This document shows positions 291-21,933 of a stretch of DNA of 32,919 nt, one piece after another. The position numbers and the translations under genes were made by a program. Position 1 is the stretch's first letter; every line of letters begins with the position of its first letter. The notes below the pieces were generated by a model. The model ran no database searches and was not told the DNA's origin. It was given only the letters and a program-made list of their open reading frames with translations. This DNA comes from Bacteroidota bacterium (lineage in GTDB: Bacteria > Bacteroidota > Bacteroidia > Chitinophagales > Chitinophagaceae): the NCBI GenBank assembly GCA_947462495.1, contig CANHOY010000001.1:1-32919 (forward strand). The letters are read 5' to 3'.

Positions 291-3200
291 TTATTTTTTC
301 TCTTCTATTAGTTTTTGAACTATTGCCTCTAAAGTTTTTAAACGTTCTTTTAGTTCAGTATTTTCTTTGCTTAATTCTTGAATAGATTTCACCACAACTG
401 GCAATAAATTACCATAAGTAGCTTCCCACTTATTGGGGTTTGACTTATAAACCAGTTTTAGCCAATCTGCATTGTATTTATTCTGCGCTTCATCCAATTC
501 CTGAGCAATAAAACCAGCGGTTTGTTCCTTGCTAATTTTACTTCCGTCAGATACCCCAGCTTTATACCATTCTCTTTTATCCCAATTAAATACTCTTGGT
601 TTTAGAGAGTTGATGAAGTTTAAGCCTACACTTAAGTCATTGATATTCTTTTTATCGCGTTGGTCGGATAAGGAAGTAATAGTAGTTACATTGGCTCTAA
701 TTACTGTATTTGAACTATTGCCTAATGTGATTTCGTCTGAAACAGAAGTGCCTGAAACTTGAGCATTGTAACCTATTGTAATATTGTTTGTTCCAGTAAT
801 TAAGGTATTACCAGCGGCATAACCTATAGCTACATTATAATTTCCTTCAGTGTTTTGTGTTAATGCTTGATAGCCTAAAGAAACGTTCCCAATTCCTATG
901 GTGTTTTTGTATGAAGCTAAAAGACCTAATGCAATATTTGAACCACCATGTGTATTATAAGTTAAAGCGCCATTCCCCATCGCAATATTAGTCGTTCCGT
1001 CAAGGTTATAATACATTGTATTATAACCAATTGCAATATTACTTGTTCCTTCAGTATTTTTATATAATGAGGCGTTTCCAATTGCAATATTTTGTAATCC
1101 TATTGTATTTTTATTCAAAGTGTATGAACCAATCCCTATATTATAATCACCGGTAGTGTTTTCAACTAAAGCGTTTGATCCAACAGCAATATTATTATAT
1201 CCTTCTGTATTTTTAGACAAGCTATTTGTTCCAATTGCAACTATATCGTCACCAATTGTGTTAGCTGATAATGTATTATAACCTAGAGCCGTATTGTTAT
1301 TTGCTATAGTATTATTTAAAAGTGATTGGTAGCCAACAGCAGTATTGTATCGACCAGTGTTATTAGCAGCAGTTGAACTTCCTTTTAAAGATTCATATCC
1401 AACAGCAGTATTACCAGTTGTTCTTCCGGTTGTTCTATCATCTGCATAATACATTGCCCTTGTTCCAATTGCAATTGAACCACTATTAGCCACATTGAAA
1501 TATAAAGACTGATAGCCAATTGATGTATTATCACTGCCAGTTGTATTATCTTTTAATGCATGAAAGCCTAAAGTTGAGTTATCATTTCCTTCAGTATTTG
1601 CACTAAGAGAATTCATACCTACACTAGTATTTCTGGCTCCAGTTGTATTAGCATTTAAAGCGCTCCATCCAATAGCAGTATTATCTCCATTCAAACTATT
1701 TTCTAAAGTTAGATGTCCAACCGCAGTATTATTGTTATATGTTGTATTAGCTTTCAAAGAATTTACACCAATAGCAACATTTCCCTGTCCAGTTGTGTTA
1801 GAATATAAAGCTGAAGATCCAATACCAATGTTATTATCGCCTGTTGTAATAGATTTTATACTTTGATATCCAATAGCAGTATTATTTAACCCAGTGTTAT
1901 TAGCAGCAGTTGTGCTGCCCATTAGTGATTCATACCCAACAGCTGTATTGCCTGTTGTTCTACCAGTGGATCTATCATCAGCATAATACATTGCATTGTG
2001 ACCTATTGCAGCTGATCCCGAGTTTGCTTTGTTTGAGAATAATGTATTTACCCCAATTGCAACATTACTTGTACCTGTAGTATTTTCATAAAGTGCTCCA
2101 TATCCATTTGCAACATTACTTGCACCTGTAGTATTTTGATATAAACTCCATTTACCAATTGCTGTGTTAAAAAATCCTGTGGTATTATAATATAGTGATG
2201 ATGATCCAATTGCTATGTTATTAATACCTGTGGTGTTACTAAATAGTGCTTGATATCCAAGCGTAATATTATGTCGCCCTGTGGTGTTGCTAAATAGTGC
2301 TTGATATCCAACTGCTGTATTTGAATAGCCTGTTGTATTTGAGAGTAATGCATCTTTCCCTATTGCTGTATTAGTAGTTACAGTAGGTGTTCCTGATCCA
2401 ATACCTACAGTAATTCCATTTACCTTTAAATCATAAGCACCTAAATCAACTGCTTGAGATGCACCAGTATACGGAACACCCGCTGTTACTGAAGTTGTAA
2501 CTGTTCCGTCTGCTCTTAAATATTGAGTTGATAAACCACCCGGAACTTTATAGCCAGCTGCAGTTATGTTACCACTTGTTTTTACATCTGTTATTGAAGT
2601 ATTTCCTAATTGAATAGTATTAGAAGCGGAGACGATTGCTAAGCTACCTATTGCAATTGCATTTGATAAGTTATTTGAAGAGGCATCACTATTATTACCA
2701 ATGAATAGATTTTGAGAACCTACTGTAATTACGCTACCAGCATCTCTACCAATTGCGTTATTTGAACTCCCAGTTGTTAAGCCAGATAAACTATAAACAC
2801 CCAGTGCGCTATTGCTACCACCTGATGTTAAATTTTTTAAAGCCCCCTCTCCAATTGCATTATTGTAATTCGAGCCTGCTGCATTAAAATTTAACATTGC
2901 CTGATGTCCTACAGCTACATTGGAACTTCCTATTATGTTTGATCTTAAAGCCTCATTCCCTAAGGCCACATTTACCCATCCAGTTGTATTTGCACTCAAA
3001 GCATCATTCCCAATTGATGTATTAGATGACCCAGTTGTATTTGCATTTAATGAATTATAACCAATTGAAGCATTATTTGAACCGGAAGTATTGCTGTATA
3101 ATGAATTTGTGCCAATAGCAACATTACTTGAACCACTAGTATTTAAGTATAAAGAACCGCCTCCAAATGAAGCATTATAATCTCCGGTAGTGTTTGCATT

Positions 3201-6200
3201 TAATGCTCCGGAACCCATTGCTGTATTGGAAGCGCCACTAGTATTAGCTTTCATTGATTCATTACCAAAAGCAGAATTATAATTCCCAGTAGTATTATAA
3301 TAAAGAGAATTATAACCAGCTGAAGTGTTGTTAGTACCTGTGATATTACTTTTTAATGCAAAACCGCCTAAGGCAATATTATAGTTGCCAGATGTATTAC
3401 TTGATAGTGAGTAATAACCCATTGCTGTATTATCACTTCCAGTAGTATTTGCACCTAAGCTATATACTCCATTTGCAGAATTCTGTGTACCTGTAGTATT
3501 TAAATGCATACTTCCAAAACCTATACTTGTATTACTAGCGCCTGTTGTATTTGAAGCCATACTTATATACCCAATTGCAGTATTATTATCACCAGTTTTA
3601 TTATTACTTAGTGCAGTTCTTCCAACTGCTGTATTATTAGAAGCAGTGGTATTTTGAGACAATGCATTATCACCAATAGCAGTATTATTTTCACCACTGG
3701 TATTATTATATAGTGAATAACCACCAACAGCTGTGTTAAAACTTGCAGTCGTATTGGAGGCTAAAGAACCTACTCCTATAGCAATATTTGATGCACCTGT
3801 TGTATTTTTTTCTAAAGCTTCAAAACCAATTGCAGTGTTGTTTGACCCCGTTTTATTTGAATATAAGGACTGAACACCTACTGCAGTATTTTGAGTACCT
3901 GAAGTATTAGATCCAAGAGATTCTTTTCCAATTGCTGTATTATTTGAACCTGTATTATTATAAGGAAGAGCTTTTGAACCAATTGCAGTATTTGAAAAGC
4001 CAGTTGTATTAAACCATAATGCAATATGACCAATTGCAGCATTATCATACCCTGTATTATTCGCACTCAATGCATTATAACCTTGAGCGGTATTATTGTA
4101 ACCTGAACTATTTCCAACCATTGCATTATGGCCAATAGCAACATTATTTGATCCAGTTGTATTATTATTAAGGGCAAAAGTACCAACTGCAGTGTTAAAG
4201 TTTCCAGTTAAATTTGTATAAAGTGACTTAAGTCCAATTGCAAGGTTATATGAACCAGTAGTATTTGAATAAAGTGCTTGATAACCAACTGCAACATTAC
4301 TTCCACCCAAAGTATTACTATACATTGCCTTTGAACCAACCGCGGTATTTCTACTTACTGTAGTTGAATTATATAGAGAACTATCTCCTATAGCAACGTT
4401 ATTATTGCCAGTTGTATTATTGAATAAGCTATATATACCAACTGCGACATTTGAATAACCCGATGTGTTTTGATTTAATGCTACAATACCAATTGCAGTA
4501 TTTGTAGAACCAGTGGTATTTCTAAAAAGTGATTTTGATCCAACAGCAATATTATAATATCCGGTTGAATTAGAATAAAGGGACTGGTAACCTTGAGCGG
4601 TATTAGAATAACCTTCAGTATTTCTATAAAGTGCTTGATAACCAATTGCAGTATTATCGTTAGCTGTTGTGTTAAAATAAAGGGAATGATCACCAACTGC
4701 AATGTTATTGTTACCTGTAGTATTTGAATAAAGAGATCTATTTCCAATTCCAGTATTTTTTTTACCTGTAGTATTTGAATAAAGAGACCTATTCCCAATC
4801 CCAGTATTATATAAGCCACTAGTATTTGAACGAAGTGCTAAACTACCAATTGCCATATTCCAAAAACCAGTTGAGTCGGTTGCTAGGTTGGAGTATAAAG
4901 AACTATCTCCAATTGCTATATTTCCAAATGTATCAGTTAGTATTCCAGATGAGCCACTACTTCCATTCAACTTCCCAGTCACAGTTAAATCTCCATTAAT
5001 AGTCACTTTCTTATTATCAAACTCACCATAAATTAAAGGAGTTTTTGTTTTATCGTTGGCGATAATTAATTTATTGCTTGTGTTTAGGAATATTGAATCA
5101 CTTGCAGCCTTGTATCCAAGTATAACATTACCACTTCCTCTTAAGTTAGTGGCAACTGCAGCACCTATAATAACATTCTTGCTTCCGTTGGAGGAAGTAT
5201 CGTATAGCATCTCTGTTCCTAGTATCACATTATCATCCCCATTGTAGTTCAATGCTGTATTGGCTCCAATAGATACGTTTCTACTTACATCATTGGCTAG
5301 TTTTAAATTATTAGCACCTATTGACACGTTCGTGCCTGCATTTTTTGCACTTTGTAATGCACTAGTTCCTAAAGCTACGTTTTGGCTGTACTGAACTGTT
5401 TTAGAGCCAACAGATCCTATTGAATTTTTTCCTGCTTCATACCCTACTAATACGTTTCCAGTAGCATCTGCTTTAGCGTTTTGCCCTGCATTATTCCCTA
5501 TGATTACATTTTGCATGGCGCCACCACTAGTTGTGGTTCCTAAAGTGGCACCACTCGCGGTACCAATTAAGATATTATCGTTATTGGAACTATTGTCTTT
5601 ATTCTTTATCAAACTACCACCTGCGCCATTACCTATTGCATAGTTATTTGCATTGGCAGCTAATGTATCCATGCCTTTTAAGGCATCATATCCAATGGCT
5701 AAACCATAGGGTGTTTTAGTTGCAGAATCTCTTATATATTTTATTACCCCCGATTTAATGCCTGCAAATTGGGCAACAATTTTGGAAAGAGAATCAATTT
5801 TAGGTATATAGATGGCGCCTCTATTATTATTTAATACAATACTATCTCCCTTTTGAGCAAGCTTAATAGTTGCTATATCTAATTTTAAACTATCTACACT
5901 AATACTTGCAGCCCCTGCATTATTGGCATATAAAGCATAAGGAACAGATAGTAGTTGAGAGGTCCCAACAAATACAAATGCAGTACCGCCATCTAAGTCT
6001 AGTTCCACTTTCATGTAGTAAGGAAACTTACTCCATTGAACATCTTCCATTTTACCTGTATTGGCTTGTCCATTTCCAATGATAACTGAGAATTGGCCGT
6101 AAGGATCTGTATTAACATTGTGTATTTCTTGATACTTAATTGTACCTAATTGCTGCAACTCAATTAGCCCAATTCTTAACGAGATTTTTTTACTAGCAAC

Positions 6201-6332
6201 AGGAGTTCCAGCATTAGTTAAGGCTACCCCTTGATAATTAAATCCAAGCGGTGCTTGTGCACTTATATTGCTAATTGATAAAATAGTGGCTACAATAAAT
6301 AAGCCAATAATTTTTTGAATATAGTTCCCCAT
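291..6332 (-). CDS. Giant exported tail-fibre-like protein A (2013 aa): signal peptide, conserved Bacteroidota N-terminal domain, 17-aa NxAxG repeats, C-terminal peptidase S74-type intramolecular chaperone
   Basis: Start placed at MGNYIQK (6332) by comparison with the two other module copies; an in-frame upstream ATG exists at 6353. SPI signal ends ISA|Q. N-domain QAPLGFNYQGVA...SQLLSVPYALYA. Dozens of NTAxGxxALxxNTTG units. C-terminal SDQRDKKNI...LKPRVFNW...GFIAQEL...coiled coil matches the chaperone-of-endosialidase (S74) pattern. Confidence 0.85.
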   Translation of the reverse strand: MGNYIQKIIGLFIVATILSISNISAQAPLGFNYQGVALTNAGTPVASKKISLRIGLIELQQLGTIKYQEIHNVNTDPYGQFSVIIGNGQANTGKMEDVQWSKFPYYMKVELDLDGGTAFVFVGTSQLLSVPYALYANNAGAASISVDSLKLDIATIKLAQKGDSIVLNNNRGAIYIPKIDSLSKIVAQFAGIKSGVIKYIRDSATKTPYGLAIGYDALKGMDTLAANANNYAIGNGAGGSLIKNKDNSSNNDNILIGTASGATLGTTTSGGAMQNVIIGNNAGQNAKADATGNVLVGYEAGKNSIGSVGSKTVQYSQNVALGTSALQSAKNAGTNVSIGANNLKLANDVSRNVSIGANTALNYNGDDNVILGTEMLYDTSSNGSKNVIIGAAVATNLRGSGNVILGYKAASDSIFLNTSNKLIIANDKTKTPLIYGEFDNKKVTINGDLTVTGKLNGSSGSSGILTDTFGNIAIGDSSLYSNLATDSTGFWNMAIGSLALRSNTSGLYNTGIGNRSLYSNTTGKKNTGIGNRSLYSNTTGNNNIAVGDHSLYFNTTANDNTAIGYQALYRNTEGYSNTAQGYQSLYSNSTGYYNIAVGSKSLFRNTTGSTNTAIGIVALNQNTSGYSNVAVGIYSLFNNTTGNNNVAIGDSSLYNSTTVSRNTAVGSKAMYSNTLGGSNVAVGYQALYSNTTGSYNLAIGLKSLYTNLTGNFNTAVGTFALNNNTTGSNNVAIGHNAMVGNSSGYNNTAQGYNALSANNTGYDNAAIGHIALWFNTTGFSNTAIGSKALPYNNTGSNNTAIGKESLGSNTSGTQNTAVGVQSLYSNKTGSNNTAIGFEALEKNTTGASNIAIGVGSLASNTTASFNTAVGGYSLYNNTSGENNTAIGDNALSQNTTASNNTAVGRTALSNNKTGDNNTAIGYISMASNTTGASNTSIGFGSMHLNTTGTQNSANGVYSLGANTTGSDNTAMGYYSLSSNTSGNYNIALGGFALKSNITGTNNTSAGYNSLYYNTTGNYNSAFGNESMKANTSGASNTAMGSGALNANTTGDYNASFGGGSLYLNTSGSSNVAIGTNSLYSNTSGSNNASIGYNSLNANTTGSSNTSIGNDALSANTTGWVNVALGNEALRSNIIGSSNVAVGHQAMLNFNAAGSNYNNAIGEGALKNLTSGGSNSALGVYSLSGLTTGSSNNAIGRDAGSVITVGSQNLFIGNNSDASSNNLSNAIAIGSLAIVSASNTIQLGNTSITDVKTSGNITAAGYKVPGGLSTQYLRADGTVTTSVTAGVPYTGASQAVDLGAYDLKVNGITVGIGSGTPTVTTNTAIGKDALLSNTTGYSNTAVGYQALFSNTTGRHNITLGYQALFSNTTGINNIAIGSSSLYYNTTGFFNTAIGKWSLYQNTTGASNVANGYGALYENTTGTSNVAIGVNTLFSNKANSGSAAIGHNAMYYADDRSTGRTTGNTAVGYESLMGSTTAANNTGLNNTAIGYQSIKSITTGDNNIGIGSSALYSNTTGQGNVAIGVNSLKANTTYNNNTAVGHLTLENSLNGDNTAIGWSALNANTTGARNTSVGMNSLSANTEGNDNSTLGFHALKDNTTGSDNTSIGYQSLYFNVANSGSIAIGTRAMYYADDRTTGRTTGNTAVGYESLKGSSTAANNTGRYNTAVGYQSLLNNTIANNNTALGYNTLSANTIGDDIVAIGTNSLSKNTEGYNNIAVGSNALVENTTGDYNIGIGSYTLNKNTIGLQNIAIGNASLYKNTEGTSNIAIGYNTMYYNLDGTTNIAMGNGALTYNTHGGSNIALGLLASYKNTIGIGNVSLGYQALTQNTEGNYNVAIGYAAGNTLITGTNNITIGYNAQVSGTSVSDEITLGNSSNTVIRANVTTITSLSDQRDKKNINDLSVGLNFINSLKPRVFNWDKREWYKAGVSDGSKISKEQTAGFIAQELDEAQNKYNADWLKLVYKSNPNKWEATYGNLLPVVVKSIQELSKENTELKERLKTLEAIVQKLIEEKK
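770..4930 (-). repeat. Intragenic 51-nt (17-aa) tandem repeat arrays, beta-roll/YadA-head-like
   Basis: Units such as NTAIGYQALYRNTEGYS and NTAQGYQSLYSNSTGYY are 17 aa long. Near-identical neighbours lie 51 nt apart (4711 vs 4762; 2227 vs 2278). Boundaries approximate. Confidence 0.9.
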
Positions 6333-6396
6333 AGAGATGATTTTTAAATTCATTTTAAGACAGCTAGATATAGCTGAATGGGGTAGGGCAAAGGTA
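6327..6396 (-). promoter_or_regulatory. Conserved promoter plus structured leader, copy A
   Basis: TACCTTTG -7 element (6396-6389), then CCCTACCCCATT, hairpin CAGCTA-TATC-TAGCTG (6376-6361), ATGA...TCAT and start ATGGGG. Homologous to 11151-11222 and 14159-14230. Confidence 0.8.
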
Positions 6397-6436
6397 AATT
6401 GATATTATGAAAAAGGACAATTTATCTCGCTACCCC

Positions 6437-7357
6437 TTATAGCTTCACAATCTTAAACGTGTAGGTCATTTTAAAGTCGGTAGAATAAACTCTTACGATG
6501 TAAATACCTGAGGCTAAATTAGCTATATCTAGGTTGGTACCGGAATATAGGTTCTTTCTATTGGCTACTATCCTTCCTGTACTAAAATCAAAAATATCGG
6601 CATTTAAGGTGTTGTATTTAATTAAGAAGAAGTTCAAGTATAAATTGGATACATAAGGATTAGGCATCACTTTTATAAACTGATTGTCCTCCAAATTAAT
6701 AATGTCTGTTACTAAGAAGAAATAAGAGGAACCTTTTAAACTAGCACAACCATTTTGCACTGTGGTAACTGTGTAAGAGGCATTTACAAGTGGCTTGTAT
6801 TTAACATCCGTAGCGCCTGCTATAGCTACTCCATCTTTATACCATTGATTGCCTGTACTGTAATTTGAGGTTAAATTACCTACACTATCTCTAACAATAG
6901 TTGGAGTTGGAGGTTTTTGGAAAGCACTCTTTGTTATGATTATTTGCCTGGAGGAATCATAATGTCCTAATCCATCTGTGTAGGCTATTTTATAAACTCC
7001 AGTATCTTTTTGAGTAAGTTTAATTAATGAAGTGTCTTTTGCTTTTATAGCAGTATCGTTTTTAAACCAAGTATAAAAAGGAGAACTATTTGCCTTGATA
7101 ATGGTGGTATCATCAGGACAAATACTTAAGTCTCCAATTATAGCTACACTGGTATCTAACATGATACGAAGTGGTTGCTGAAAACCAACAGTTATTTTAT
7201 TCGTACCTGAGCTAAAATTTCCTGCCATATATTGACCCACTGAAAAGTTTACGTTAGGGCTAGTAAAACCTACAGAGTTGATGGAACCACGTTTGATGGT
7301 TTGGGCATTTAATTGTCCTAAAACAAAGAATGATAATATAAAAAGTAGTTTTTTCAT
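6437..7357 (-). CDS. T9SS type A sorting (CTD) domain protein with N-terminal FSVGQ...GFQQP segment and Ig-like domains
   Basis: Signal peptide LNA|Q. Ig-like YTWFKN and QWYKDGVAIAGAT motifs. C-terminal KVMPNP...DIANLASGIYIVRV...TFKIVK is a typical type A CTD. Confidence 0.85.
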   Translation of the reverse strand: MKKLLFILSFFVLGQLNAQTIKRGSINSVGFTSPNVNFSVGQYMAGNFSSGTNKITVGFQQPLRIMLDTSVAIIGDLSICPDDTTIIKANSSPFYTWFKNDTAIKAKDTSLIKLTQKDTGVYKIAYTDGLGHYDSSRQIIITKSAFQKPPTPTIVRDSVGNLTSNYSTGNQWYKDGVAIAGATDVKYKPLVNASYTVTTVQNGCASLKGSSYFFLVTDIINLEDNQFIKVMPNPYVSNLYLNFFLIKYNTLNADIFDFSTGRIVANRKNLYSGTNLDIANLASGIYIVRVYSTDFKMTYTFKIVKL

Positions 7358-7377
7358 TTAATTTAAATTTTCCACAA

Positions 7378-10300
7378 TTAATTATTACCTACGATAATCC
7401 AATTTGACCCATCACTAACCACTTTTACATATTTATATTGTGAACTTAAAGCATATGTAGTTGATCCATCAATAGTTTGCGATGATGTTGTAGCAGCTGT
7501 AACATCATTTCCGCCGGAATTAATTCTTTTGATTGTATAAGTTTGCCCAACTACTCCAATAGCCGTTGGTAGTGTAATTGTTATAGGGGCTGAGGTGGCA
7601 TTAGCGAGAATAATTTCATCTGAAGACAAGGCAGAGTAGGCTGAAGTTTTAGAAACTAAATTAGAAATTATACCATTAGATTTAAAAGTACCACTTGTGT
7701 TGACATTAGTTATTGAAGTATTCCCTAATTGAATTGAGTTAGAAGCTGAAACTATTGTACCTGCTCCAATTGCAATTGCATTTGATAAAGCACTACTCGA
7801 AACATCAGCAACATTACCAATAGCAATGTTATCATTTCCAGTTATGTTGGTTTGTAAACTTGCCATTCCAAGTGCTACATTTCCATTACCAGTTGTATTT
7901 CCCACTAAAGTTGACATTCCAATTCCAGTATTATTAATTCCTGTTGTGTTATTTGGAATTGCGCCATAACCAATTGCAGTATTATCACCACCAGTAGTAT
8001 TTGCAAATAGTGCCCCACTTCCATTTACTGTATTGTAAGAACCTGTTGTATTAGAGGTGAGAGAATTTCTACCAATTGCAGTGTTTAATTCTCCAGTTGT
8101 ATTTGCATTAAGGGCGCCGTGTCCTAAAGCCGAATTGTTTGAACCTGTAGTGTTTGATAGCATACTTTGATAACCCATTGCTGTATTGTTTGCACCTGTA
8201 GTATTACTGTATAAACTACCTGCCCCATTTGCAGTATTTGAATACCCAGTGGTATTTGCATATAGGGCTTGGCTTCCGATAGCGGTATTGAAAATACCAG
8301 AAGTGTTGGCATTTAGTGTTTTGTATCCAAGAGCAGTATTTTCATACCCAGTTGTGTTTGTATTCATACTTGCATAACCAATACTAGTATTATTAGCACC
8401 CGTTGTATTGCTATACAAAGCAGTATATCCAATCCCTACATTGCCCTCAGCAGTTGTATTTTGGTTTAATGCTCTATCTCCAACAGCAACATTTCCAGTG
8501 GCAGTAGTGTTTTTAGTTAATGACTCTCTGCCAATAGCAACATTCGCTGCACCTGTTGTATTTTCATATAATGCACCTTGACCAACAGCAACATTGACAT
8601 AACCAGTTGTATTTTTCCTTAATGCTTGAGTTCCAATTGCAGTATTCCAGCTTCCAGTTGTTGTTGTTTCTAATGAATTATTACCAATAGCAGTGTTATA
8701 TGATGCAGTAGTATTTTTTGTTAGAGCACCACTCCCAAAAGCACTATTATCATTACCAGTTGTGTTATTACCCATGGTGCCATTACCAAAAGCATTATTT
8801 CTTACACCACCAGTATTGTATTGCAAAGCTAAAATACCAAAAGCTGAATTCTCAGTACCTGTTGTATTATAACTCATTGATCTAAATCCAACTGCAGTAT
8901 TATTATTTCCTGTTGTTGAGCGTTTTAATACACTATCGCCAATGCCTATATTTTGAATTCCTGTGGTATTTGAAATCATAACATCGGAACCTAAAATTGT
9001 ATTATTATAACCTCCAATAGGTATAAAAGTCACATTTGAACCAATTAATTTTCCAGTCACGGTCAATTCTCCATTTATTTTTAACTTCTTATTGTCAAAC
9101 TCTCCATAAATTAAAGGAGTTCTTGAGTTGTCATTATGAATAACTAATCTATTACTTATATTTTAAAATCTTCATTTGCCCCAGCTGAATTTCCAATAAA
9201 TATATTTTTATCACCAGTTTCTAAAAGTCCACCAGCATTATATCCCAAAGCCAAATTATAACTACCTGATGTATCAGATGTCAAGGCATTTACTCCAAAT
9301 GCAGAATTATAATTTCCGATTTTATTTGATAATAAAGACGTTCTTCCAAATCCACTATTCATAATGCCTTTAGTATTTGCGTTTAATGCATAATTTCCAA
9401 ATGCAGAATTTCTATGTCCTGTTGTATTATTTGAGAGAGTATAAGCGCCAAAAGCATTATTACAACAACCAGTTTCATTTAGTTTTAAAGCATCTATTCC
9501 AATCGCATTATTTTGAGTAGCCGCATTTTTTGTTAATGTTGATGAGCCTATACCAATACTATTATTCGCATTTTTACTATTAATTAATGCCTTGGATCCA
9601 ATTGCAATATTATTCCAACCGCTGTCAATTAAAAATAAAGAACTATCTCCAATTGCAATATTATTCTGACCAAATTCAGTTATTGAATTATCTTCTTTAA
9701 TAAATTTTAAGCTGTTTTTTTGCAACCTTATGTTATTTGTATCGATAATAAACATTGTATATATAGAATCTGGATTTATTTGTGTTCCGCTTGTTTTACC
9801 TGTTACAATCAAATCCCCATTAATAGTTACCTTCTTATTATCAAACTCTCCATAAATAAGAGGCGTCTTAGTTTTATTATTTGCAATGATTAATTTATTG
9901 CTCGTATTTAGGAATATCGAATCGCTTGCTGCTTTATAACCTAATATAACATTTCCACTTCCCCTTAAGTTGGTTGCAACAGCAGCCCCTATAATAACAT
10001 TCTTGCTTCCGTTGGAGGAAGTATCAGTAAGCATTTGAGAACCAATGATAATATTATCGTCACCATTATAATCGGGTGCCATATTATTTCCAATAGTAAC
10101 ATTTCTATTTACTTGCTTTGATCTATTAAAATTCTCAGAGCCAATTGCAACATTTGATTCTGCAGCTATTGCATATTGCATAGACCTACTTCCAATTGCA
10201 ACATTTTGATTAAATACAGGAGTAAGTGAACCTAATGTGCCATATGAAAATCTACCAGCTTCATGTCCTATTATAATATTATTTGCAGCCATTCCATTCA

Positions 10301-11156
10301 TATATTGTCCAGTATAATTCCCTAGCATAATATTTTGATTTGCTCCTCTTCCTGTTGATGAACCGATTCCCCAGCCAGATGCATTACCAATAAAAACATT
10401 ATCGTTATTATAGTTAGCATCAGAAAATTTTGGTAATAAAGCTCCTGCACTTTGGCCTATGGCAATATTTGCACTATTGGTAGCTACACTATCAAATAAG
10501 GCTAAAGCGTCATATCCAACTGCAATACCAGTTGGAATTTTAGAAGCAGAATCTTTAATGTATTTTAAAGTACCTGCTTTTATTCCAGCTAATTGTGCTA
10601 CAATTTTTGTAAGCGAATCAATTTTAGGGATATAAATTGCACCTCTATTATTGTTTAATATAATACTATCTCCTTTTTGTGTTAACTTAATTGTGCTTAA
10701 TATATTCTTAATGCTATCCACTCCAACGGAAGCAGCTCCTGCATTATTTGCATATAAAGCATAAGGGACAGATAAAAGTTGTGATGTTCCTACAAATACA
10801 AAGGCAGTACCTCCTGTTAAATCAAGCTCCACTTTCATATAATAGGGGAATAAACTCCATTGAACATCTGTCATTTTACCAGTAACAGCTTGACCATTAC
10901 CAATGATAACAGAGAATTGTCCATATGGATCGGTATTTACATTGTGTATTTCTTGATACCTAACTGAACCCAATTGTTGTGATTCTATTAAAGCAATTCT
11001 TAAAGAAATTACTTTACTAGCTATTGGTGTTCCAGCATTGGTTAAGGCTACCCCTTGATAATTAAATCCAAGTGGCGCTTGTGCACTTATATTGCTGATT
11101 GATAAAATAGCGGCTACAATAAATAAGCCAATAATTTTTTGAATATAGTTCCCCAT
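7378..11156 (-). pseudogene. Frameshifted paralogue B of the giant fibre protein (ORFs 9156-11156 and 7378-9066 form one gene; 1259 aa if repaired)
   Basis: The first ~450 aa parallel protein A. Adding one A to the minus-strand A4 run (+ strand T 9161-9164) gives DFKNISNRLVIHNDNSRTPLIYGEFDNKKLKINGELTVTGK, in frame with the second ORF and matching the neck motif seen at two other places. Could be a true mutation or an assembly indel. Confidence 0.85.
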
Positions 11157-11222
11157 AGAAATGATTTTTAAATTTCATTTTAAGACAGTTATAATTAACT
11201 GAATGGGGGTAGGGTAAAGGTA
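11151..11222 (-). promoter_or_regulatory. Conserved promoter plus structured leader, copy B
   Basis: TACCTTTA (11222-11215), CCCTACCCCCATT, hairpin CAGTTA-ATTA-TAACTG (11201-11186), AAATGA...TCATTT, start ATGGGG. Confidence 0.8.
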
Positions 11223-11392
11223 GCCTTAAAGATTAATAAACTATATTATTTAATAAGGTGAAATGGTATAAATTTTATTTTCTTTGAGAATGTGCGTATT
11301 GATTCTCAATAAGATAGAGAATATTGACTGGTTTTACTTAGAAATACATTTTGAATTTGCCATAGGTTGAAAACCAGGGGCTTATTATTTAA

Positions 11393-11959
11393 TCATCTAA
11401 AAAAGAAACCAGTTACTTTTTTAGGGCTATAAGTACTAATTGTTAAAGTAAAATATTCACTCATTATTTTTTCGCCCCCGAAAATTATATTTTGTTGTTT
11501 TATGCGTGCTAAATTTGCAAAATATTTATCAACTACTGTGAATCTATAAGTAATTGAATTATTATATTTATTGATATCGACTTTTATTTTATCCAGACTT
11601 ATTGATTTCAATTGATTATACATGGATTCAAAAATCGTAGAATCAATGAAATATTCAATTACAGTATTAGAAGCCCCGTATTTTTTTGATGTATGAAACT
11701 TAGATAATTTCCGAACAAATGGAGTTATTCTAAAATTTATATCTATATTTTGGTTTGATTGAAATGCCCATAATGCAATACCTTCATTGCTTTTATTATA
11801 GTTTCGATTTACTAGGAAATATTTTTTTGAGTTTAAAAAAATATTTAAAGAATCAATACTTTCAGTTTTGAATACTGTTTCCATCTCAGTTAGACTTAAT
11901 TGCTGCGCTTTGGTTTGTATAACTCCCAAAATAAGTAGGGTAGATAAAATCCATCTCAT
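11393..11959 (-). CDS. Hypothetical exported protein (188 aa)
   Basis: Signal peptide MRWILSTLLILGVIQTKA|Q. Starts 12 nt after the upstream stop. No family recognised. Confidence 0.65.
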   Translation of the reverse strand: MRWILSTLLILGVIQTKAQQLSLTEMETVFKTESIDSLNIFLNSKKYFLVNRNYNKSNEGIALWAFQSNQNIDINFRITPFVRKLSKFHTSKKYGASNTVIEYFIDSTIFESMYNQLKSISLDKIKVDINKYNNSITYRFTVVDKYFANLARIKQQNIIFGGEKIMSEYFTLTISTYSPKKVTGFFFR

Positions 11960-11971
11960 AAATCGATATTT

Positions 11972-12928
11972 TTAAGAATTTCTGCTATTTTTTAAATTAT
12001 TTGGACTTTTTGGAGATTCGGAGATTTTCAAATAAGCACGATTTTTTTTATTTTTTTTTGCCACTCCCTTTCCTTCTATGAAAATAGTGAAATTTTTAAA
12101 CTCATAGGAATAGGAAGAATTTGCAATAGGCTGATTTGTATAAGAAAATGCCGCGTATAGGTTGGCATCTTTTAATGGGAACTTATATCTTAAACCTAAA
12201 TTATATCCTAATGTATTTGATTGAAAATCGGAATATCCTTGGAAGTAATTACTACCTGTTCTATAATATCCACCTGAATTATGAAAGAAAAATTGATAAG
12301 AAGGGCCAACGGTAAACAAGTCGGGCATAAAAAATAAATCTTTCGGCTTTTCTTTAAATAACTTAAAAATTAAACCGCCATTCAAATCTAGTATGGTTAT
12401 ATTATTTAAATTTGATTCGGAATTATTTGTATTTGTCCCAATAATTATTGAATTAGAGATAAACAAATTAACTCTATCATTTAATTTTAATGTCGAACCC
12501 AGGCCTAAGCTAAAAGCATTTTGAGTCAACATTGGATATTCCTCATTTTGATTACCGTTTTTAATTATTGTTCCTAGCTTTGTTATACCCATTGACAAAT
12601 TAAAGTCCATTCCTTGCCCAATTTTATAACTTTTGACTGAATCATTTTTATTAATGATATTTTTGGAAGTATCAATTTTCGTTAATTGCTCATCGTAAAA
12701 ATTGTCTTTAGTTCCATTTTTATATGTTATAGACTTTAGGTCTTTTATTAATATGGTATAAATGGGGCCATTTAAATTTTCAAACTTTCTGTATTTTACT
12801 TCTGAAAGCGTTACTTCTAAAACTTTAGAGGGTACTTCTTCTCCAGATTTTTTTATTAATATATCTTGTGAGTATAAGCTGCTATTTAAAAAATAAGAAA
12901 TTAGAATTAGTATAATTATTTTTTTCAT
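11972..12928 (-). CDS. Exported protein: small conserved N-terminal domain plus probable outer-membrane beta-barrel
   Basis: Signal peptide ...LYS|Q. N-domain QDILIKKSGEEV..KVLEV..EVKYRK...GP..I.YKNG. C-terminal amphipathic strands (FSLGLGSTL, LGYNLGLRYKF, LYAAFSY). Confidence 0.7.
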   Translation of the reverse strand: MKKIIILILISYFLNSSLYSQDILIKKSGEEVPSKVLEVTLSEVKYRKFENLNGPIYTILIKDLKSITYKNGTKDNFYDEQLTKIDTSKNIINKNDSVKSYKIGQGMDFNLSMGITKLGTIIKNGNQNEEYPMLTQNAFSLGLGSTLKLNDRVNLFISNSIIIGTNTNNSESNLNNITILDLNGGLIFKLFKEKPKDLFFMPDLFTVGPSYQFFFHNSGGYYRTGSNYFQGYSDFQSNTLGYNLGLRYKFPLKDANLYAAFSYTNQPIANSSYSYEFKNFTIFIEGKGVAKKNKKNRAYLKISESPKSPNNLKNSRNS

Positions 12929-12987
12929 TCTTTTGACTTTTTAATCTTTCTTAGACAAACTTTTTAAGGGGGGAGATAATCTATCTA

Positions 12988-13566
12988 TTAATTACCAGCG
13001 TTGCTTTGTCCAATTAGAAATAATACTATTGCTAAATTAAAGCCGGTTCCGAGCAAAAACTTATTATAAATTTTCTTTTTTCTTATTTTAATAGCCATTT
13101 GCTTGTAACCATTTTTATATTCTGTATTATTAATAAGTGCCTTATTTAAATAGTTTAAATTTTCATCTTTTATTTCTTTATTACTTTCAATTGCGGCGGC
13201 TATTCCGCCTACTAAAGGTGTTAATAAGGAGGTTGTAGTGAGTACTAATGATTCATCTGATTTAGGCACGTAATAAAATTTTGATGCATCTAATTGGCCT
13301 TGTTCAAAATTTGAAATACTTGGAGTGTCTTGTGTAAATAAGTCTTTTGATCCATTTTCGTATCGGATGATTAAAACATCTTTTATTAGCAAAGAATAAA
13401 TAGGACCTTCTAAGTTCTCAAATTTTTTATACTTTATTTCGGAAAGGGTGACCTCAGTTACTTTAGCTTTTATATCTTCCCCGTTCTTTTTTGTAATTAA
13501 GTCCTGTCCAAAAGATAAAATTGACATACAGGATAATGCCCAAGCAGTAAAAAATATTTTTTTCAT
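12988..13566 (-). CDS. Exported/membrane hypothetical protein sharing its N-terminal domain with 11972-12928
   Basis: Likely start MKKIFF at 13566, 1 nt after the porin-family gene stop. N-domain QDLITKKNGEDIKAKVTEV...IRYENG. Hydrophobic C-terminal helices. Confidence 0.72.
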   Translation of the reverse strand: MKKIFFTAWALSCMSILSFGQDLITKKNGEDIKAKVTEVTLSEIKYKKFENLEGPIYSLLIKDVLIIRYENGSKDLFTQDTPSISNFEQGQLDASKFYYVPKSDESLVLTTTSLLTPLVGGIAAAIESNKEIKDENLNYLNKALINNTEYKNGYKQMAIKIRKKKIYNKFLLGTGFNLAIVLFLIGQSNAGN

Positions 13567-13567
13567 T

Positions 13568-14164
13568 TTAAAAAGCATAACTTAATACAACGCTTAAAGA
13601 ATTATTTTTAATGGTTGAGTTTAGCCCGGTACCTTGGAATGCAATAGTACTAGTACTACTCATGATATTTGATAAGCCGTATCCATATCTAAATCCTGCA
13701 TGTATTTTTTCAGTTAGTTTAATGCCGCCTCCAAATACAAATTGGATATCGGTTGTTTTAAAATTAGTCTTTTTTACTGCCGTATCAGATTTTGAGCTGG
13801 CTCCTAATAAGAGTCCAAATTGTGGTCCTGCCTCTACATATAGAATATCGGTCAATGCAAATTTAAATAATAGTGGAATGCTTATATAGCTTAGATCGAT
13901 ACTATCTGCCATAGTTCCCATTACTTGATATAATATTTCAGGTTGAATTGATACACTTTCATTAAGCTCATAATTTAAAAAGCCACCCACGACATATTTT
14001 GTTGACTTTGAGGTATTAACATCAAGCCCATTTAATGATATTTTCCAGGAAGGATAATTAACACCCCCTTTTAAACCAAAAGTAGTTTGAGCTTGTATTT
14101 GACTTGTTGATAATAAAGTCGCAATTAGAATTAAGCCTAATATTTTTTGAATATAATTCCCCAT
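13568..14164 (-). CDS. Porin-family / small outer-membrane beta-barrel protein (OMP_b-brl_2/PorT-like)
   Basis: FGLKGGVN, SIQPEILY, LSYISIPLLFKF, VEAGPQFGLLL and RYGYGLSNI motifs, plus a terminal YAF BAM signal. Confidence 0.85.
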   Translation of the reverse strand: MGNYIQKILGLILIATLLSTSQIQAQTTFGLKGGVNYPSWKISLNGLDVNTSKSTKYVVGGFLNYELNESVSIQPEILYQVMGTMADSIDLSYISIPLLFKFALTDILYVEAGPQFGLLLGASSKSDTAVKKTNFKTTDIQFVFGGGIKLTEKIHAGFRYGYGLSNIMSSTSTIAFQGTGLNSTIKNNSLSVVLSYAF

Positions 14165-14230
14165 ACAAATGATTTTTAAAATTCATTTTTAGACAGTTAG
14201 AATTAACTGAATGGGGGTAGGGTAAAGGTA
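14159..14230 (-). promoter_or_regulatory. Conserved promoter plus structured leader, copy C
   Basis: TACCTTTA (14230-14223), CCCTACCCCCATT, hairpin CAGTTA-ATTC-TAACTG (14209-14194), AAATGA...TCATTT, start ATGGGG. Confidence 0.8.
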
Positions 14231-14285
14231 CAGCTGTTATATTAATCTTTATCTTAATTTTTGTACTTATTTGGGTGTTGGAGGA

Positions 14286-14411
14286 GGGATGCCGGAGCTT
14301 TGCTCCGGCATCCCGGGGGTCTGAAAATAACAAGCGCAACGCATCGAGTGCTTTCCGGATTGCCGTCGCTTTGCTCCGGCATCCCGGGGGTCTGAAAATA
14401 AAAAGCGCAAC
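14286..14411. repeat. GC-rich REP-like element: 13-bp perfect hairpin overlapping the first of two 44-nt direct repeats
   Basis: GGGATGCCGGAGC-TTT-GCTCCGGCATCCC (14286-14314). Direct repeats at 14297-14340 and 14368-14411 differ by one base and are separated by 27 nt. Confidence 0.75.
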
Positions 14412-14491
14412 CCAGAGCGCGCTTCGCGCCCTCGTGTTTTTAATTCATCCACTTCAATCTCGAAACAAGTTTCGGATCTCGTGGCTAAATT

Positions 14492-14521
14492 AAAAACCCA
14501 CCCCGTGTTCCGGGGTGGGTT
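14492..14521 (-). terminator. Rho-independent terminator of tRNA-Ser
   Basis: 11-bp stem AACCCACCCCG / CGGGGTGGGTT with a 5-nt loop, running into a T-run on the minus strand. Lies 15 nt downstream of the tRNA. Confidence 0.8.
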
Positions 14522-14536
14522 GCTCTTTCTATTTTG

Positions 14537-14621
14537 CAGAGAGGAAGGGATTCGAACCCCCGATACGTTGCCGTATACACGCTTTCCAAGCGTGCTCCTT
14601 AAACCACTCGGACACCTCTCT
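14537..14621 (-). tRNA. tRNA-Ser (anticodon GGA), CCA not encoded
   Basis: AGAGAGG acceptor stem, D-arm CCGAGTGGTTTAAGG, anticodon arm CACGC-TTGGAAA-GCGTG, long variable arm ATACG-GCAA-CGTAT, T-loop GTTCGAATC, discriminator G. A TAACTTCG -7-like element lies just upstream. Confidence 0.97.
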
Positions 14622-14665
14622 ATTAGGGCAGCGAAGTTAAAATAAATACTTGAGTTTATTGGCCT

Positions 14666-15109
14666 TTAATGCTCTTTTCTATTATGATCCATTCGCTCAT
14701 TGTATTCCAAAGGCTCGTTTTTCCAATTTTTATTATAAGAGACAAACCATCCTAACCAGATGGATCTGGATAATCGCATAATTAAAGGTTGTGTAAAAAG
14801 TAACAATACGATGGCCGTACCCATCCAATAAAATATTCTATTGTCGTCCAAATCAAAAGTCATACCTATCAATACCTTCCATGCCACAAAAGTGGATACA
14901 AAATAAGCCACCGTTAAAGCATAACTCACATAGCCTGTTCCATAATAAAATCCCAATTCTATTTCGGTTGGTTGCCCACACACTGGACACCTTTCATTCA
15001 TTTTAGTAATGGCAGATAAGTCGTATGGATTGCTGGATACAAATAATTTTCCTTCTCTACACCTTGGACATTTGTTGTTTAGGGTGCTCCACAAATAATT
15101 TTTCGGCAT
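14666..15109 (-). CDS. DUF983 family membrane protein
   Basis: KCPRCREGKLF...CPVCG...E.GFYYG..YVSYAL, two TM helices, RLSRSIW. Confidence 0.85.
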   Translation of the reverse strand: MPKNYLWSTLNNKCPRCREGKLFVSSNPYDLSAITKMNERCPVCGQPTEIELGFYYGTGYVSYALTVAYFVSTFVAWKVLIGMTFDLDDNRIFYWMGTAIVLLLFTQPLIMRLSRSIWLGWFVSYNKNWKNEPLEYNERMDHNRKEH

Positions 15110-18467: not shown

Positions 18468-21400
18468 ATGATAAGGTGGGCCCTAGTATTTTTTTTATGT
18501 ATTGTAATTTTTCCTTCTATTTCAAGTGGGCAAATTTCGCCTTTTTTTAATGGAAAATGGGTAAAAATTGCTGCTACCAAACAGGGGGTGTATCAAGTCA
18601 CGGGTGCCCAACTTAAAGCTATGGGTTTTACCATCCCTTTTGCCTCTAGTCAAGTGCAATTGTACAATTTTAATTTAGCCAATTTGAACGACAAGGTAGT
18701 AGCCAATCCAAAAGTGGGTATTGCTGAAAATGCGATTCTGGTGAATGACGGCGGTGACAATCAATTTGATGAAAAAGATTTTTTATTATTTTATAGTGAA
18801 GGATTTATTCAATGGAAATACGATGAAGTAAAAGGTTTGCCCACTCATTTTAAAAATGCCGTTAGCGATTCCGTTTTTTATTTTATCACGATGGGTGCCA
18901 ATGGAAAAAGAATTAGCAGGCTTGAGAAAATAAATACATCACAACAAACCATCGATGATTATGATGAAAGATGGGTCATTGAAAAAGACAGTGTTTCACT
19001 TTTAAAAAGCGGTAAATTATTGCTTGGTTCGCCCATGGGTCAAGGCAATGGAAAACAAGCACAACTCAATTACACCTATAGTATGGAGGGATTGCTTGTA
19101 AGTAGTCCATTAAAAATAGTAAGCAAATATGCTGCCACAACCTATGAAAACAAAGCCAATTTTAATTTATCCTTCAATAGCAATTTGGCAAGAACTAGTT
19201 CGGTAGATCCTGTGTCTGGGTATTTGTATGATGAATCGGCCAATATTATTATTGATAGTAGTAGTTATTTACTAAATGCCAATACCAATTTAGCCAGTCC
19301 GGTGAACATCAATATTGCATTTTCTAGCAATAATACTAGCGCAACGGGTTGGATAGATTTTATTGAAATAAATGCTAAAAGAAAAATTGGTTTTTGGGGT
19401 AGCAACTCTTTTGGTTTTAGAAATTATCAAAATATAAAATCAGGACTTGCCACGCAATATCAATTACAAAATATAGATGCTACTACACAGGTTTGGGATG
19501 TGACGCATCCAGAGACACCTTTGGGTTTGTCAGTTAATTTTCAAACGCCCACTGCTGGAAATTTTATTCAACTAGCCGATACTCTTCGCGAGTTTTTTGC
19601 CTTTAAACAAAATGCCTATGAGACAGCCACTTTTATAGCTGGGGTAGATAAGCAAAATGTGATAGGTAGCGATGTGCCAGATTATATCATAGTGAGTGCT
19701 AGCAATTATTTAAAGCCTGCAAAAAAATTGAGAGATTTTCATGAATCGGCCCATGGTTTAAAAGGCCAAGTGTTTAATGTGAATGAAATTTTCAATGAAT
19801 TTTCGGGCGGACAACCAAGTGCTATCGGCATTAGAAATTTTATTCAATATTTGTTTAATCAAGCAGCGGTAAAGCGTCAAAATGTACCACAATATTTATT
19901 ATTAGTGGGAATGGCCATTTATAGTAATAAAAATTACAATAGTGCCCAACAAATTCCAGTTTTTCAAAGTGAAGCCTCTACTGGTATTTTAACAAGTTAT
20001 CCAACAGATGATTATTATAGTATTCTGAATAATAATAATGATATTAATTCACCAAATAATATTAATATTTTATCCTTGGCTACAGGAAGATTACCTGTAA
20101 GGACTTTGGCTGAAGCAGATACGGTAGTTGAAAAAATAATTAGTTATCAAAAAAACAGTAATGGAGGTGCCTGGAAAAATCAATTGACTTGGGTAGCAGA
20201 TGATGGAGATTATAATTTGCATTTACAAGATGCCGAAGACATCACCAATAATTTACAAAAGAAAGCGACTCAATGGAATCAGAAAAAAGTATATTTAGAT
20301 TTATACCCTGCTTCTAAAAATATTGCAGGTAATACTTATCCTTTAGTGAATGGGATCATCAATCAATCCGTTAATAATGGAACGCTAATTTTAAATTATA
20401 CGGGGCATGGAAATTTTTCAAGATTAGCGGAAGAGGCTGTGATTGCCCAACCCGATGTACAACAATGGGATAATGCTGGTAAGCTTCCTTTAATGATTAC
20501 AGCTTCTTGTGATTTCGCTCCTTATGACCAACCACAATTGAGTCCATTTGGGTTTGATGCACTTTTAAAAAATTCAAAAGGGGTGGTGGCCTTGGTGTCG
20601 GCAAGTAGATTGGTATATGCTTATAGCAATAAACAAATTAATGATTTATTTATTCAAAAATTATTGGTGCCAGATAGTGTTGGCCAATATTTAACTATAG
20701 GCAACGCGTTGCAAAAAGCAAAAATGGCCGCATGGGCTCAGGGAGAAGACCGTATCAACACCTTTAAATTTACCTTATTAGGTGATCCTGCCATGTATTT
20801 GGCGAAGTCAAAGGATCAAGTTATTTTAAATTCAATTAATGGAAAAACCTTTAATGGCATCGATACGCTACAGGCAGGTAATAAATATTCAATAAGCGGA
20901 TTGGTCAAATCTAATGGGCAAACAAAAAATAATTTTAATGGCACACTTGAAATGGTGCTATATGATGCAGCTAGTTTGAAAAAAACATTGGGCAATGATG
21001 TTAAAAGTATTCCTGTTAATATAAGTCTACAAGAAAATATTTTATTTAAAGGAAAAGCTAGTGTTGCTAATGGAAATTTTGTAATTGAATTTATGTTGCC
21101 TAAAGAAGTGAGTGTAAATCAAGGGGCTTTAAAAATGCAATTAAATGCTTATAATGATAGTACGGATGCAATGAGTGTTTATCAACAAATTTATGCGAAG
21201 CCAATACTTTCTGAAAATTTTTCAGATACCATTGGGCCTTCTATGAAAGTATTTTTGAATGACACCAACTTTATTAACGGAGGTTGGGCAGCGGCAAAAT
21301 CGACACTTCTTATAAATTTAAAAGATGAAGCGGGCATTCAAACTTCTGGCAATTCATTAGGCCATGATATTACCTTATTAATTGATGGAGATACCAAAAA

Positions 21401-21878
21401 TGAATTGGTATTGAATAATTATTATACAGCAGCCATTAATACTTATCAGAAAGGGAGTATTCAATATGCATTGCCTAGTTTTTCAATAGGACAACATCAG
21501 TTAATTATTAAGGCCTGGGACCTATTGGGCAATTCAAGTAAGGATACTATTCAATTTATCGTACCTGATACGGCAGTAATGCTTTTAAATAAAGTGAGCA
21601 ATTTCCCCAATCCCTTTAGACATGGTACTTCATTTAGTTTTGAGCACAATCAATTAGAAAATACTCTAAATATTAACTTAAGCCTTTATAACAATAATGG
21701 TTTGCTTTTATTTACAAGGCCATTAAATGCTCAATACAATGCGAATAGAGTTGTTTCCTATTGGGATGGAACCAACACTAGTGGGGGCTTGTTAAATCCG
21801 GGAGTGTATTATTATAAAATTACGCTATCCAATGGGAAGGAAACAAAGGTATTGGCTAATAAATTAGTTAAATTTTAA
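18468..21878 (+). CDS. porU: T9SS sortase PorU (peptidase C25 family)
   Basis: GKWVKI...GVYQVT, IFNEFSGG, GRLPV, VADDGD, catalytic NYTGHG and TASCDF, LLGDPA, IKAWD, C-terminal NFPNPF CTD. Followed by porV. Confidence 0.92.
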   Translation: MIRWALVFFLCIVIFPSISSGQISPFFNGKWVKIAATKQGVYQVTGAQLKAMGFTIPFASSQVQLYNFNLANLNDKVVANPKVGIAENAILVNDGGDNQFDEKDFLLFYSEGFIQWKYDEVKGLPTHFKNAVSDSVFYFITMGANGKRISRLEKINTSQQTIDDYDERWVIEKDSVSLLKSGKLLLGSPMGQGNGKQAQLNYTYSMEGLLVSSPLKIVSKYAATTYENKANFNLSFNSNLARTSSVDPVSGYLYDESANIIIDSSSYLLNANTNLASPVNINIAFSSNNTSATGWIDFIEINAKRKIGFWGSNSFGFRNYQNIKSGLATQYQLQNIDATTQVWDVTHPETPLGLSVNFQTPTAGNFIQLADTLREFFAFKQNAYETATFIAGVDKQNVIGSDVPDYIIVSASNYLKPAKKLRDFHESAHGLKGQVFNVNEIFNEFSGGQPSAIGIRNFIQYLFNQAAVKRQNVPQYLLLVGMAIYSNKNYNSAQQIPVFQSEASTGILTSYPTDDYYSILNNNNDINSPNNINILSLATGRLPVRTLAEADTVVEKIISYQKNSNGGAWKNQLTWVADDGDYNLHLQDAEDITNNLQKKATQWNQKKVYLDLYPASKNIAGNTYPLVNGIINQSVNNGTLILNYTGHGNFSRLAEEAVIAQPDVQQWDNAGKLPLMITASCDFAPYDQPQLSPFGFDALLKNSKGVVALVSASRLVYAYSNKQINDLFIQKLLVPDSVGQYLTIGNALQKAKMAAWAQGEDRINTFKFTLLGDPAMYLAKSKDQVILNSINGKTFNGIDTLQAGNKYSISGLVKSNGQTKNNFNGTLEMVLYDAASLKKTLGNDVKSIPVNISLQENILFKGKASVANGNFVIEFMLPKEVSVNQGALKMQLNAYNDSTDAMSVYQQIYAKPILSENFSDTIGPSMKVFLNDTNFINGGWAAAKSTLLINLKDEAGIQTSGNSLGHDITLLIDGDTKNELVLNNYYTAAINTYQKGSIQYALPSFSIGQHQLIIKAWDLLGNSSKDTIQFIVPDTAVMLLNKVSNFPNPFRHGTSFSFEHNQLENTLNINLSLYNNNGLLLFTRPLNAQYNANRVVSYWDGTNTSGGLLNPGVYYYKITLSNGKETKVLANKLVKF

Positions 21879-21933
21879 CGACTACTATAAATGAATTTTG
21901 TACCTTTAATTTTCTTAAGTTGAAATTATTATT

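Follow-up and report, generated by a model that had tools for sequence, protein, structure and literature searches.

A covarying RNA hairpin in the leader of a predicted promoter and signal-peptide head shared by unrelated secreted-protein genes of Sediminibacterium

Why do unrelated genes for secreted proteins begin with the same short leader, and what does that leader do for them? The question is raised by a stretch of 32,919 nucleotides (nt), hereafter the window, that comprises positions 1 to 32,919 of contig CANHOY010000001.1 in assembly GCA_947462495.1 (contig C1 of the 1.6-Mb, 74%-complete Sediminibacterium genome G000). Its minus strand carries three copies, A, B and C, of a 161-nt repeat family, and no fourth copy was found in the rest of this incomplete genome. 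A preliminary description, made from these letters alone, had read the leader of each copy as a cis-regulatory RNA, a three-way junction of the helices P1, P2 and P3 in which P1 pairs a 5'-terminal C-run with the initiator sequence AUGGGG and so sequesters the start codon. The three copies with their named helices, a C-G to U-A change in P2 and the three different loops are all present as claimed. Comparison of 58 distinct leaders, gathered from metagenomes and 14 other Sediminibacterium genomes, places the weight on one of these helices: judged by its substitutions, P2 is a real sense-strand RNA hairpin under selection. It lies in a head that consists of a predicted promoter, a 52-54-nt leader and a signal-peptide start.

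In an alignment of 53 sequences P2 was 97.8% paired, with three pairs changed on both sides, and it was the only helix retained by RNAalifold. Across all 58 leaders the variants of P2 (n=31) comprised 159 Watson-Crick, 14 G.U and no A.C cells, together with 10 other cells, and the loop ranged from 3 to 8 nt (4 nt in 51 leaders). When substitutions were mapped by a home-made co-substitution test, not R-scape, on a tree built without the stem, pair 4 showed six same-branch co-substitutions against 1.6 expected (P=0.0002) and pair 6 showed four against 0.7 (P=0.0006). Pair 5 was marginal (two against 0.4, P=0.05), and none of seven mismatched column controls reached significance. The variable loop and the tolerance of G.U without A.C fit an RNA hairpin of the sense strand better than an operator of fixed spacing or an antisense RNA. 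The cis-acting, sense-strand leader structure of the preliminary description, with its covariation in P2, is upheld across the 58 leaders.

A second conserved feature is the predicted promoter. The TAnnTTYR box stands exactly 4 nt ahead of a purine and the C-run in 37 of the 44 metagenome rows accepted as members and in none of the 76 other rows, and the promoter was not part of the search pattern. Among 53 boxes, 24 are exact TAnnTTTG, 18 end in TTTA, six in TTCG and five are of other types; in the window those of copies B and C end in A, not G. The purine at +1 is kept in 52 of 53 sequences (A in 50, G in two). According to passages of PMC6847099, Flavobacterium transcripts start 4-5 nt after a box of the TAnnTTTG type, and the spacing seen here is that of a Bacteroidota sigma-A promoter. 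The predicted start site holds because the -7 box and the +1 purine are conserved, and from these sequences we infer that transcription starts at the purine 4 nt past the box, one base before the C-run. The start site that had been proposed from the -7 box, just before P1, is thereby retained as a prediction.

P1 behaves differently from P2. It was paired in 75.8% of cells in the 53-sequence alignment, with no pair changed on both sides, and no covariation was detected on the tree of 58 leaders. Substitutions numbered 12, 8 and 13 on the G side against 2, 0 and 0 on the C side, where the search pattern had preset the C-run for most members; the five members found by a covariance model alone, four of which have C-run changes, likewise gave no P1 covariation in the AUG register. 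The last four positions of the C-run are all C in 54 of 58 leaders, which is partly fixed by the search pattern. Of 54 leaders with the start at the usual place, 19 have AUGGGG, as does none of 17 copies in 14 other genomes, and the register originally proposed is predicted in 24. For 34 of these 54 leaders, all kin, the C-run is predicted to pair to some extent with the coding start, as against 55 of 540 controls, and a run of four G within the first 18 coding nt occurs in 27 of the 54 (again kin) compared with 12 of 1,061 G000 genes. The GGG of the start region is conserved no better than neighbouring coding positions. On this modelling P1 may be an optional, ancestral feature that is able to form in the window copies, and the sequestration of the start codon as a conserved function was not borne out. 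An RNA thermometer finds no support in prediction: averaged over 54 leaders, the start region has a predicted unpaired fraction of 0.42 at 4 °C, against 0.47 at 37 °C.

Support for P3 as a selected helix is weak. It was 92.7% paired in the 53 sequences, and two pairs were changed on both sides in one sequence each, with eight A.C against five G.U cells. Its predicted energy is 0 to -2.9 kcal/mol and lies below the 5% shuffle level in only five of 54 leaders. The stem described earlier is present in the window, with only 4 base pairs (bp) in copy A. The AUG within P3 opens an upstream mini open reading frame (ORF) of 2-3 codons in 37 of 58 leaders; its stop is lost in 15, including all three window copies, and the AUG in six. 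In gene A this AUG is in frame with the ORF at 291-6353, so the initiator of that gene is ambiguous; the frames of genes B and C are opened only by the codon in AUGGGG. The minimum-free-energy fold of each window copy is indeed a three-way junction (A, -13.7; B, -13.4; C, -14.0 kcal/mol), by a modest margin: 13, 7 and 8 of 200 shuffles, respectively, folded as well. As a conserved unit the junction is not supported, with P1 lacking two-sided change and P3 showing more A.C than G.U. The preliminary description had cautioned that the opposite strand might be the folded one. That strand is indeed more stable in all three copies (-19.6, -18.0 and -15.6 kcal/mol for A, B and C), whereas the P2 variants favour the sense RNA.

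What travels with the hairpin is more than a leader. Identity between copies A and C falls from 85% across box and leader to 69% within the signal peptide and 42% past it, and is 37% upstream; the signal-peptide part of A is 95% identical to that of B; the step past the signal peptide marks the repeat as a head module. The proteins behind the head fall into 16 unrelated families among 49, without a common metabolic theme, and include type IX secretion system (T9SS) cargo, S74 fibres, beta-barrels and lipoproteins. A crude hydropathy rule classes 49 of 50 N-termini as signal-peptide-like. The same head thus precedes unrelated mature domains, and identity ends near the cleavage site. Two loci show heads whose genes have changed. 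In L039 (G002:C25:44571-46100) the gene behind the leader is interrupted after 60 codons by a transposase-like insertion, which we take to be of the IS21 type, and in L044 (G012:C1:509926-509955) the leader's own frame stops after 13 codons and a different gene now lies ~130 nt downstream.

Many heads also lie near a repeat of a tRNA gene. A 16-nt copy of the tRNA-Lys(TTT) 3' end was found 163-242 nt before the leader at 11 of 53 loci with enough upstream DNA, and at none of 119 controls. Units of 4.7-12.6 kb are delimited by such repeats in G069, G012, G211 and G213; the leader there forms the first promoter inward from one end, oriented towards the tRNA where visible. Other tRNA-Lys repeats precede different leaders, and the head is therefore common at unit ends but not obligatory. 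No integrase was seen within the units in a limited search (one tblastn query and ORF lists), and one member has an integrase gene and a helix-turn-helix gene ahead of it. G000 yielded no tRNA-Lys repeat; its window copies lie at a tRNA-Ser. Tandem arrangements (G012:C1:486886-509100; G069:C5:15547-20326; G213:C141:185-8011; G211:C7:793-5679; G210:C144:12333-17540) consist of tRNA-Lys repeats each followed by a conserved block of ~100 nt, and their cargo is mostly secreted proteins. The arrays look like non-autonomous cassettes. We infer that recombination in variable islands moves the heads and joins them to new mature domains, often along the inner edge of a tRNA-Lys attachment repeat.

The leaders were collected in several searches. 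Of 281 genomes of the genus, 11 matched a pattern for the core, and the controls gave no match. A metagenome scan, which left most of P2 and the promoter unspecified, returned 120 loci, of which 44 were member rows and 76 were dropped, and a profile search over all loci gave 54 distinct members, 53 of them full length. From 160 of the 280 other genomes of the genus, chosen by small size, a covariance model retrieved 17 copies in 14 genomes; five of these are divergent copies that the patterns had missed, one of which (in G261) is degenerate. The tree of heads, with 27 of 55 inner branches unresolved, was not used for ancestry. Among the 76 metagenome matches that were dropped, about 16 belong to a repeat family of their own, with inverted repeats inside and neither a -7 box nor P2 (L107, L123, L134, L149, L150, L153, L155, L159, L162, L164, L181, L210, L212, L216, L220 and L221); they resemble the ends of eukaryotic Tc1/pogo-type miniature transposons.

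Searches beyond the genus yielded few candidates. A GTDB pattern scan returned 52 loci, of which 10 were members and 42 were judged chance matches and dropped; loci coinciding with its records are filed as Sediminibacterium or Chitinophagales, bar one 3-kb contig filed as Ignavibacteria. That contig carries a typical member (L066), near-identical to metagenome locus L156, by mis-binning or cross-phylum transfer. Seven pattern matches on viral contigs included none with a -7 box or P2. Model searches of 150 family and 150 order genomes, in which just the top-ranking candidates of each genome were scored and distant members may be missed, each gave one weak match: G085, a genome of the same genus in which the motif is absent, and G484 (E=0.0036), from another family of the order. 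The latter (L270:1040-1075, on G484:C3) is a perfect 10-bp hairpin that starts like the leader core and has no start codon at the usual place; its membership is unconfirmed. The nine carriers in an atpD ranking are 85-96% identical to G000, and a leader match is absent from close relatives such as G235 (atpD 92%, 100% complete), so the element is patchy within this small-genome clade. Searches of Rfam 15 gave a tRNA as the sole match in the window at E<=1, and for 12 homologous loci one tRNA and three sub-threshold matches, none on the leader core, in agreement with the earlier remark that the junctions match no known riboswitch or ribozyme. Literature searches found no description of the motif, which motif tables in the supplements of RNA surveys may nevertheless hold.

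How might such a hairpin act? Our preferred reading, held tentatively and at somewhat short of even chances, is that P2 behind a C-rich 5' end shields the mRNA from 5'-end-dependent decay and raises the output of secreted protein. A C-rich, hairpin-bearing 5' end would protect the message and boost whichever gene stands behind the head. With GGG as the second codon, which is the case in the window, P1 would form as well and damp initiation; 1-2 nt at the 5' end would then stay unpaired, as predicted for the window copies. Both the 5' end and the start codon would be buried, and stability gained at translation's cost. P1 would then tune output, not switch it. RNase E/G is encoded in five of five carrier genomes and RNase Y in four of five, and in model bacteria 5' structure and the identity of the second nucleotide limit access of RppH and RNase E, according to passages of PMC3997798. 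A constitutive booster would suit a head that serves unrelated cargo.

Several points weigh against this shielding role. RppH of Bacillus subtilis needs only 2-3 unpaired 5' nt, as stated in the same passages (PMC3997798), and because 8-9 unpaired nt precede P2 without P1, P2 alone would make a poor classical stabiliser. No RNase J was found above the cut-off in G000. The tree behind the co-substitution test is poorly resolved and the test is of our own design, and transcription-linked C-to-T bias could account for part of the G.U asymmetry. For most members the search patterns preset the C-run, the first three bases of P2 and the linker. Finally, the base of the P2 stem and its flanks are conserved in sequence while the loop and the promoter spacer vary, which indicates a specific binding partner. 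It is this last point that speaks for P2 and its flanks as the site of a small RNA or a sequence-specific RNA-binding protein that would regulate every head-bearing gene together: the stem-base pairs and flanks are near-fixed even in the five model-only members, and unpaired C-rich tails typically serve as seeds for pairing. We regard such a site as unlikely, if a serious contender, since no regulator gene stands beside the head in the loci read, no partner was identified and the sequence conservation is partly imposed by the search patterns. The model of the preliminary description, in which P1 hides the start codon until a signal opens the junction, accords with the fold of all three window copies, with the excess of predicted pairing between C-run and coding start, and with the G-runs, which persist in a shifted frame in a second subfamily; the divergent copy L253 has a C-to-U change that matches the shifted G-run. 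Structure at the start region also reduces initiation in Flavobacterium, according to passages of PMC6847099. The one-sided substitutions of P1, the absence of AUGGGG from other genomes, the poorly kept GGG, the weak P3, the short junctions and the lack of a riboswitch match in Rfam nevertheless make it rather improbable.

A different role during transcription would be that of a pause hairpin. P2 would load UpxY, a NusG paralogue encoded on its own, in trans, and UpxY would antiterminate the long AT-rich cargo operons in the manner of RfaH at ops. The carriers read have a second NusG-family gene that follows a protease gene and is not part of a capsule operon, and the copy in G066 passes the UpxY cut-off. 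A conserved UG is present in 49 of 58 leaders, with P2 ending at -10 (25 leaders) or -9 (24), a register within the -12 to -9 given for Bacteroides opsX hairpins in passages of PMC11685472. UpxY is, however, also encoded in five of five genomes without the leader, so there is no co-occurrence; the YGCGNAGCR non-template hairpin is absent from the window leaders (of 36 matches to this motif in G000, three lie outside long ORFs and none in a leader), and nine of 58 leaders lack the UG yet retain the RNA motif. So near the start (~35 nt), sigma may still occlude the binding site, and some cargo units are shorter than 2 kb, all of which leaves this role quite improbable. As a separate observation, the UpxY-family NusG paralogue at the loci L257, L259, L260, L261 and L262 stands alone: it follows a C-terminal protease-like gene and is remote from any capsule operon.

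Action as DNA (an operator palindrome or a folded single-stranded site) or as antisense RNA would account for the more stable opposite strand, the A.C cells of P3 and the proximity of the head to attachment repeats. It sits badly with the varying P2 loop and the sense-strand bias of its variants, and with a distance from head to -7 box that is fixed while that to the repeat is not; we consider it very unlikely. We give even less weight to an upstream ORF, begun by the P3 AUG, through which ribosomes would be coupled to the main start. An A-run precedes the upstream AUG, whereas the base at -3 of the main AUG is mostly U, and the phylum shows a deficit of additional AUGs close to start codons (passages of PMC6847099), yet the mini-ORF is not conserved. 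Similarly little credence is due to neutral hitch-hiking, in which a functionless hairpin is copied with its promoter and keeps its symmetry by template-switch mutation. The members are recent kin of patchy distribution, and palindromes can self-correct; against this stand the strand-specific tolerance of G.U, inner pairs that are almost never broken, and retention in hosts as far apart as the atpD carriers.

Coordinates of the head copies, their cargo genes and the adjoining tRNA in the window are collected below.

Table. Head copies and associated genes in the window; the start sites and all helices are predictions.
Feature	Position	Strand	Remarks
Copy A, -7 promoter box TACCTTTG	6396-6389	-	box and 4-nt spacing kept in homologues
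Copy A, predicted +1 (A)	6384	-	from Bacteroidota consensus and spacing (passages of PMC6847099)
Copy A, C-rich 5' end of predicted leader; 5' strand of optional P1	6378..6384	-	
Copy A, P2 hairpin, conserved and covarying RNA element	6361..6376	-	
Copy A, P3, weak AU-rich hairpin with upstream AUG	6337..6353	-	AUG in frame with gene A
Copy A, AUGGGG, probable start codon and GGG; 3' strand of optional P1	6332-6327	-	non-covarying
Copy A, signal-peptide coding part of shared head	6258..6332	-	25 codons
Copy B, -7 box, leader and start codon	11151..11222	-	box 11222-11215, predicted +1 A11210, P2 11201-11186, AUGGGG 11156-11151
Copy C, -7 box, leader and start codon	14159..14230	-	box 14230-14223, predicted +1 A14218, P2 14209-14194, AUGGGG 14164-14159
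Cargo gene A, ~2,010-amino-acid (aa) secreted protein	291..6332	-	17-aa repeats; C-terminal Peptidase_S74 chaperone domain (phage-type)
Cargo gene B, paralogue of A	7378..11156	-	two frames, 9156-11156 and 7378-9066; frame break near 9156
Cargo gene C, 198-aa outer-membrane beta-barrel protein	13568..14164	-	unrelated to A and B outside the signal peptide
tRNA-Ser(GGA)	14536..14621	-	Rfam match 14537-14621; ~300 nt upstream of copy C, at the edge of the variable region

The frame break of gene B (9066-9160) divides it into parts of 666 and 562 aa. Contigs from four DNA sequencing runs aligned to 5900-14700 were too broken up to inform on the leader; a low-depth one from run X7 carries an additional base at 9162, and other alleles of gene B may exist. 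A gene for a T9SS-sorted protein (6437-7357) lies between genes A and B, and the T9SS genes Peptidase_C25 and PorV are found at 18468-23064. Between the tRNA-Ser and copy C, at 14270-14460, are GC-rich palindromic repeats resembling repetitive extragenic palindromes; their number differs among relatives, and one contains a YGCGNAGCR match. G066 has the same tRNA-Ser and unit C as the window, without modules A and B.

Set beside known systems, the hairpin is an undescribed RNA motif, as far as sequence comparison can tell, within a known type of arrangement. In the erp loci of Borrelia burgdorferi one promoter, leader and export-signal start is common to surface-protein genes with many independent, recombining mature parts, according to passages of PMC10016077. 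The Sediminibacterium head is likewise shared by unrelated mature domains, which is a likeness of arrangement and not of family membership. The erp heads are DNA operators bound by BpaB, located at one allelic site on cp32 prophages with lipoprotein cargo; in contrast, the Sediminibacterium head has a covarying RNA hairpin and occupies several chromosomal sites (tRNA-Ser, tRNA-Lys and others). The 5'-terminal stabilisers of the Escherichia coli ompA and papA type, as treated in passages of PMC3997798, similarly place a hairpin near the (here predicted) 5' end of an envelope-protein mRNA, in our case in a host with RNase E/G and RNase Y. They differ in that the Sediminibacterium P2 has its unpaired tail ahead of it unless P1 forms, and in that its leader is a presumably mobile multi-gene module. 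With opsX/UpxY of Bacteroides fragilis and ops/RfaH of E. coli (passages of PMC11685472) the leader shares a hairpin 9-10 nt before a pyrimidine-G step; it too precedes horizontally moving genes for surface products, in a host with a upxY gene. It is promoter-proximal, however, without the YGCGNAGCR hairpin or co-occurrence with upxY, which lies elsewhere, and the first genes behind it encode secreted proteins. Integrative elements, such as integrative mobilizable elements and genomic-island arrays, accrete in tandem at tRNA 3' ends. The units bounded by tRNA-Lys 3'-end repeats resemble these arrays, and differ in the apparent lack of an integrase, as far as the limited search extends, and in a cargo of almost only secreted proteins.

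On present evidence the leader does not reveal a new riboswitch. A bolder synthesis, to which we assign a low probability, is that integrase-less cassettes, stacked at tRNA-Lys and other sites, carry a standard RNA-structured head that is read in trans by a host factor, UpxY or an RNA-binding protein. If this were true, a newly fused surface protein would join one regulon at once, with P1 as a dial that the second codon sets gene by gene. The 58 natural variants amount to a mutant panel for the role of a promoter-proximal hairpin in Bacteroidota, and a short portable leader may be of use in expression tools. The host belongs to an abundant freshwater lineage in which translation is initiated without a Shine-Dalgarno sequence and few leader RNAs are known. 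For this lineage the head would represent a route of surface-protein turnover, in which a ready-made start for expression and export is joined to new domains.

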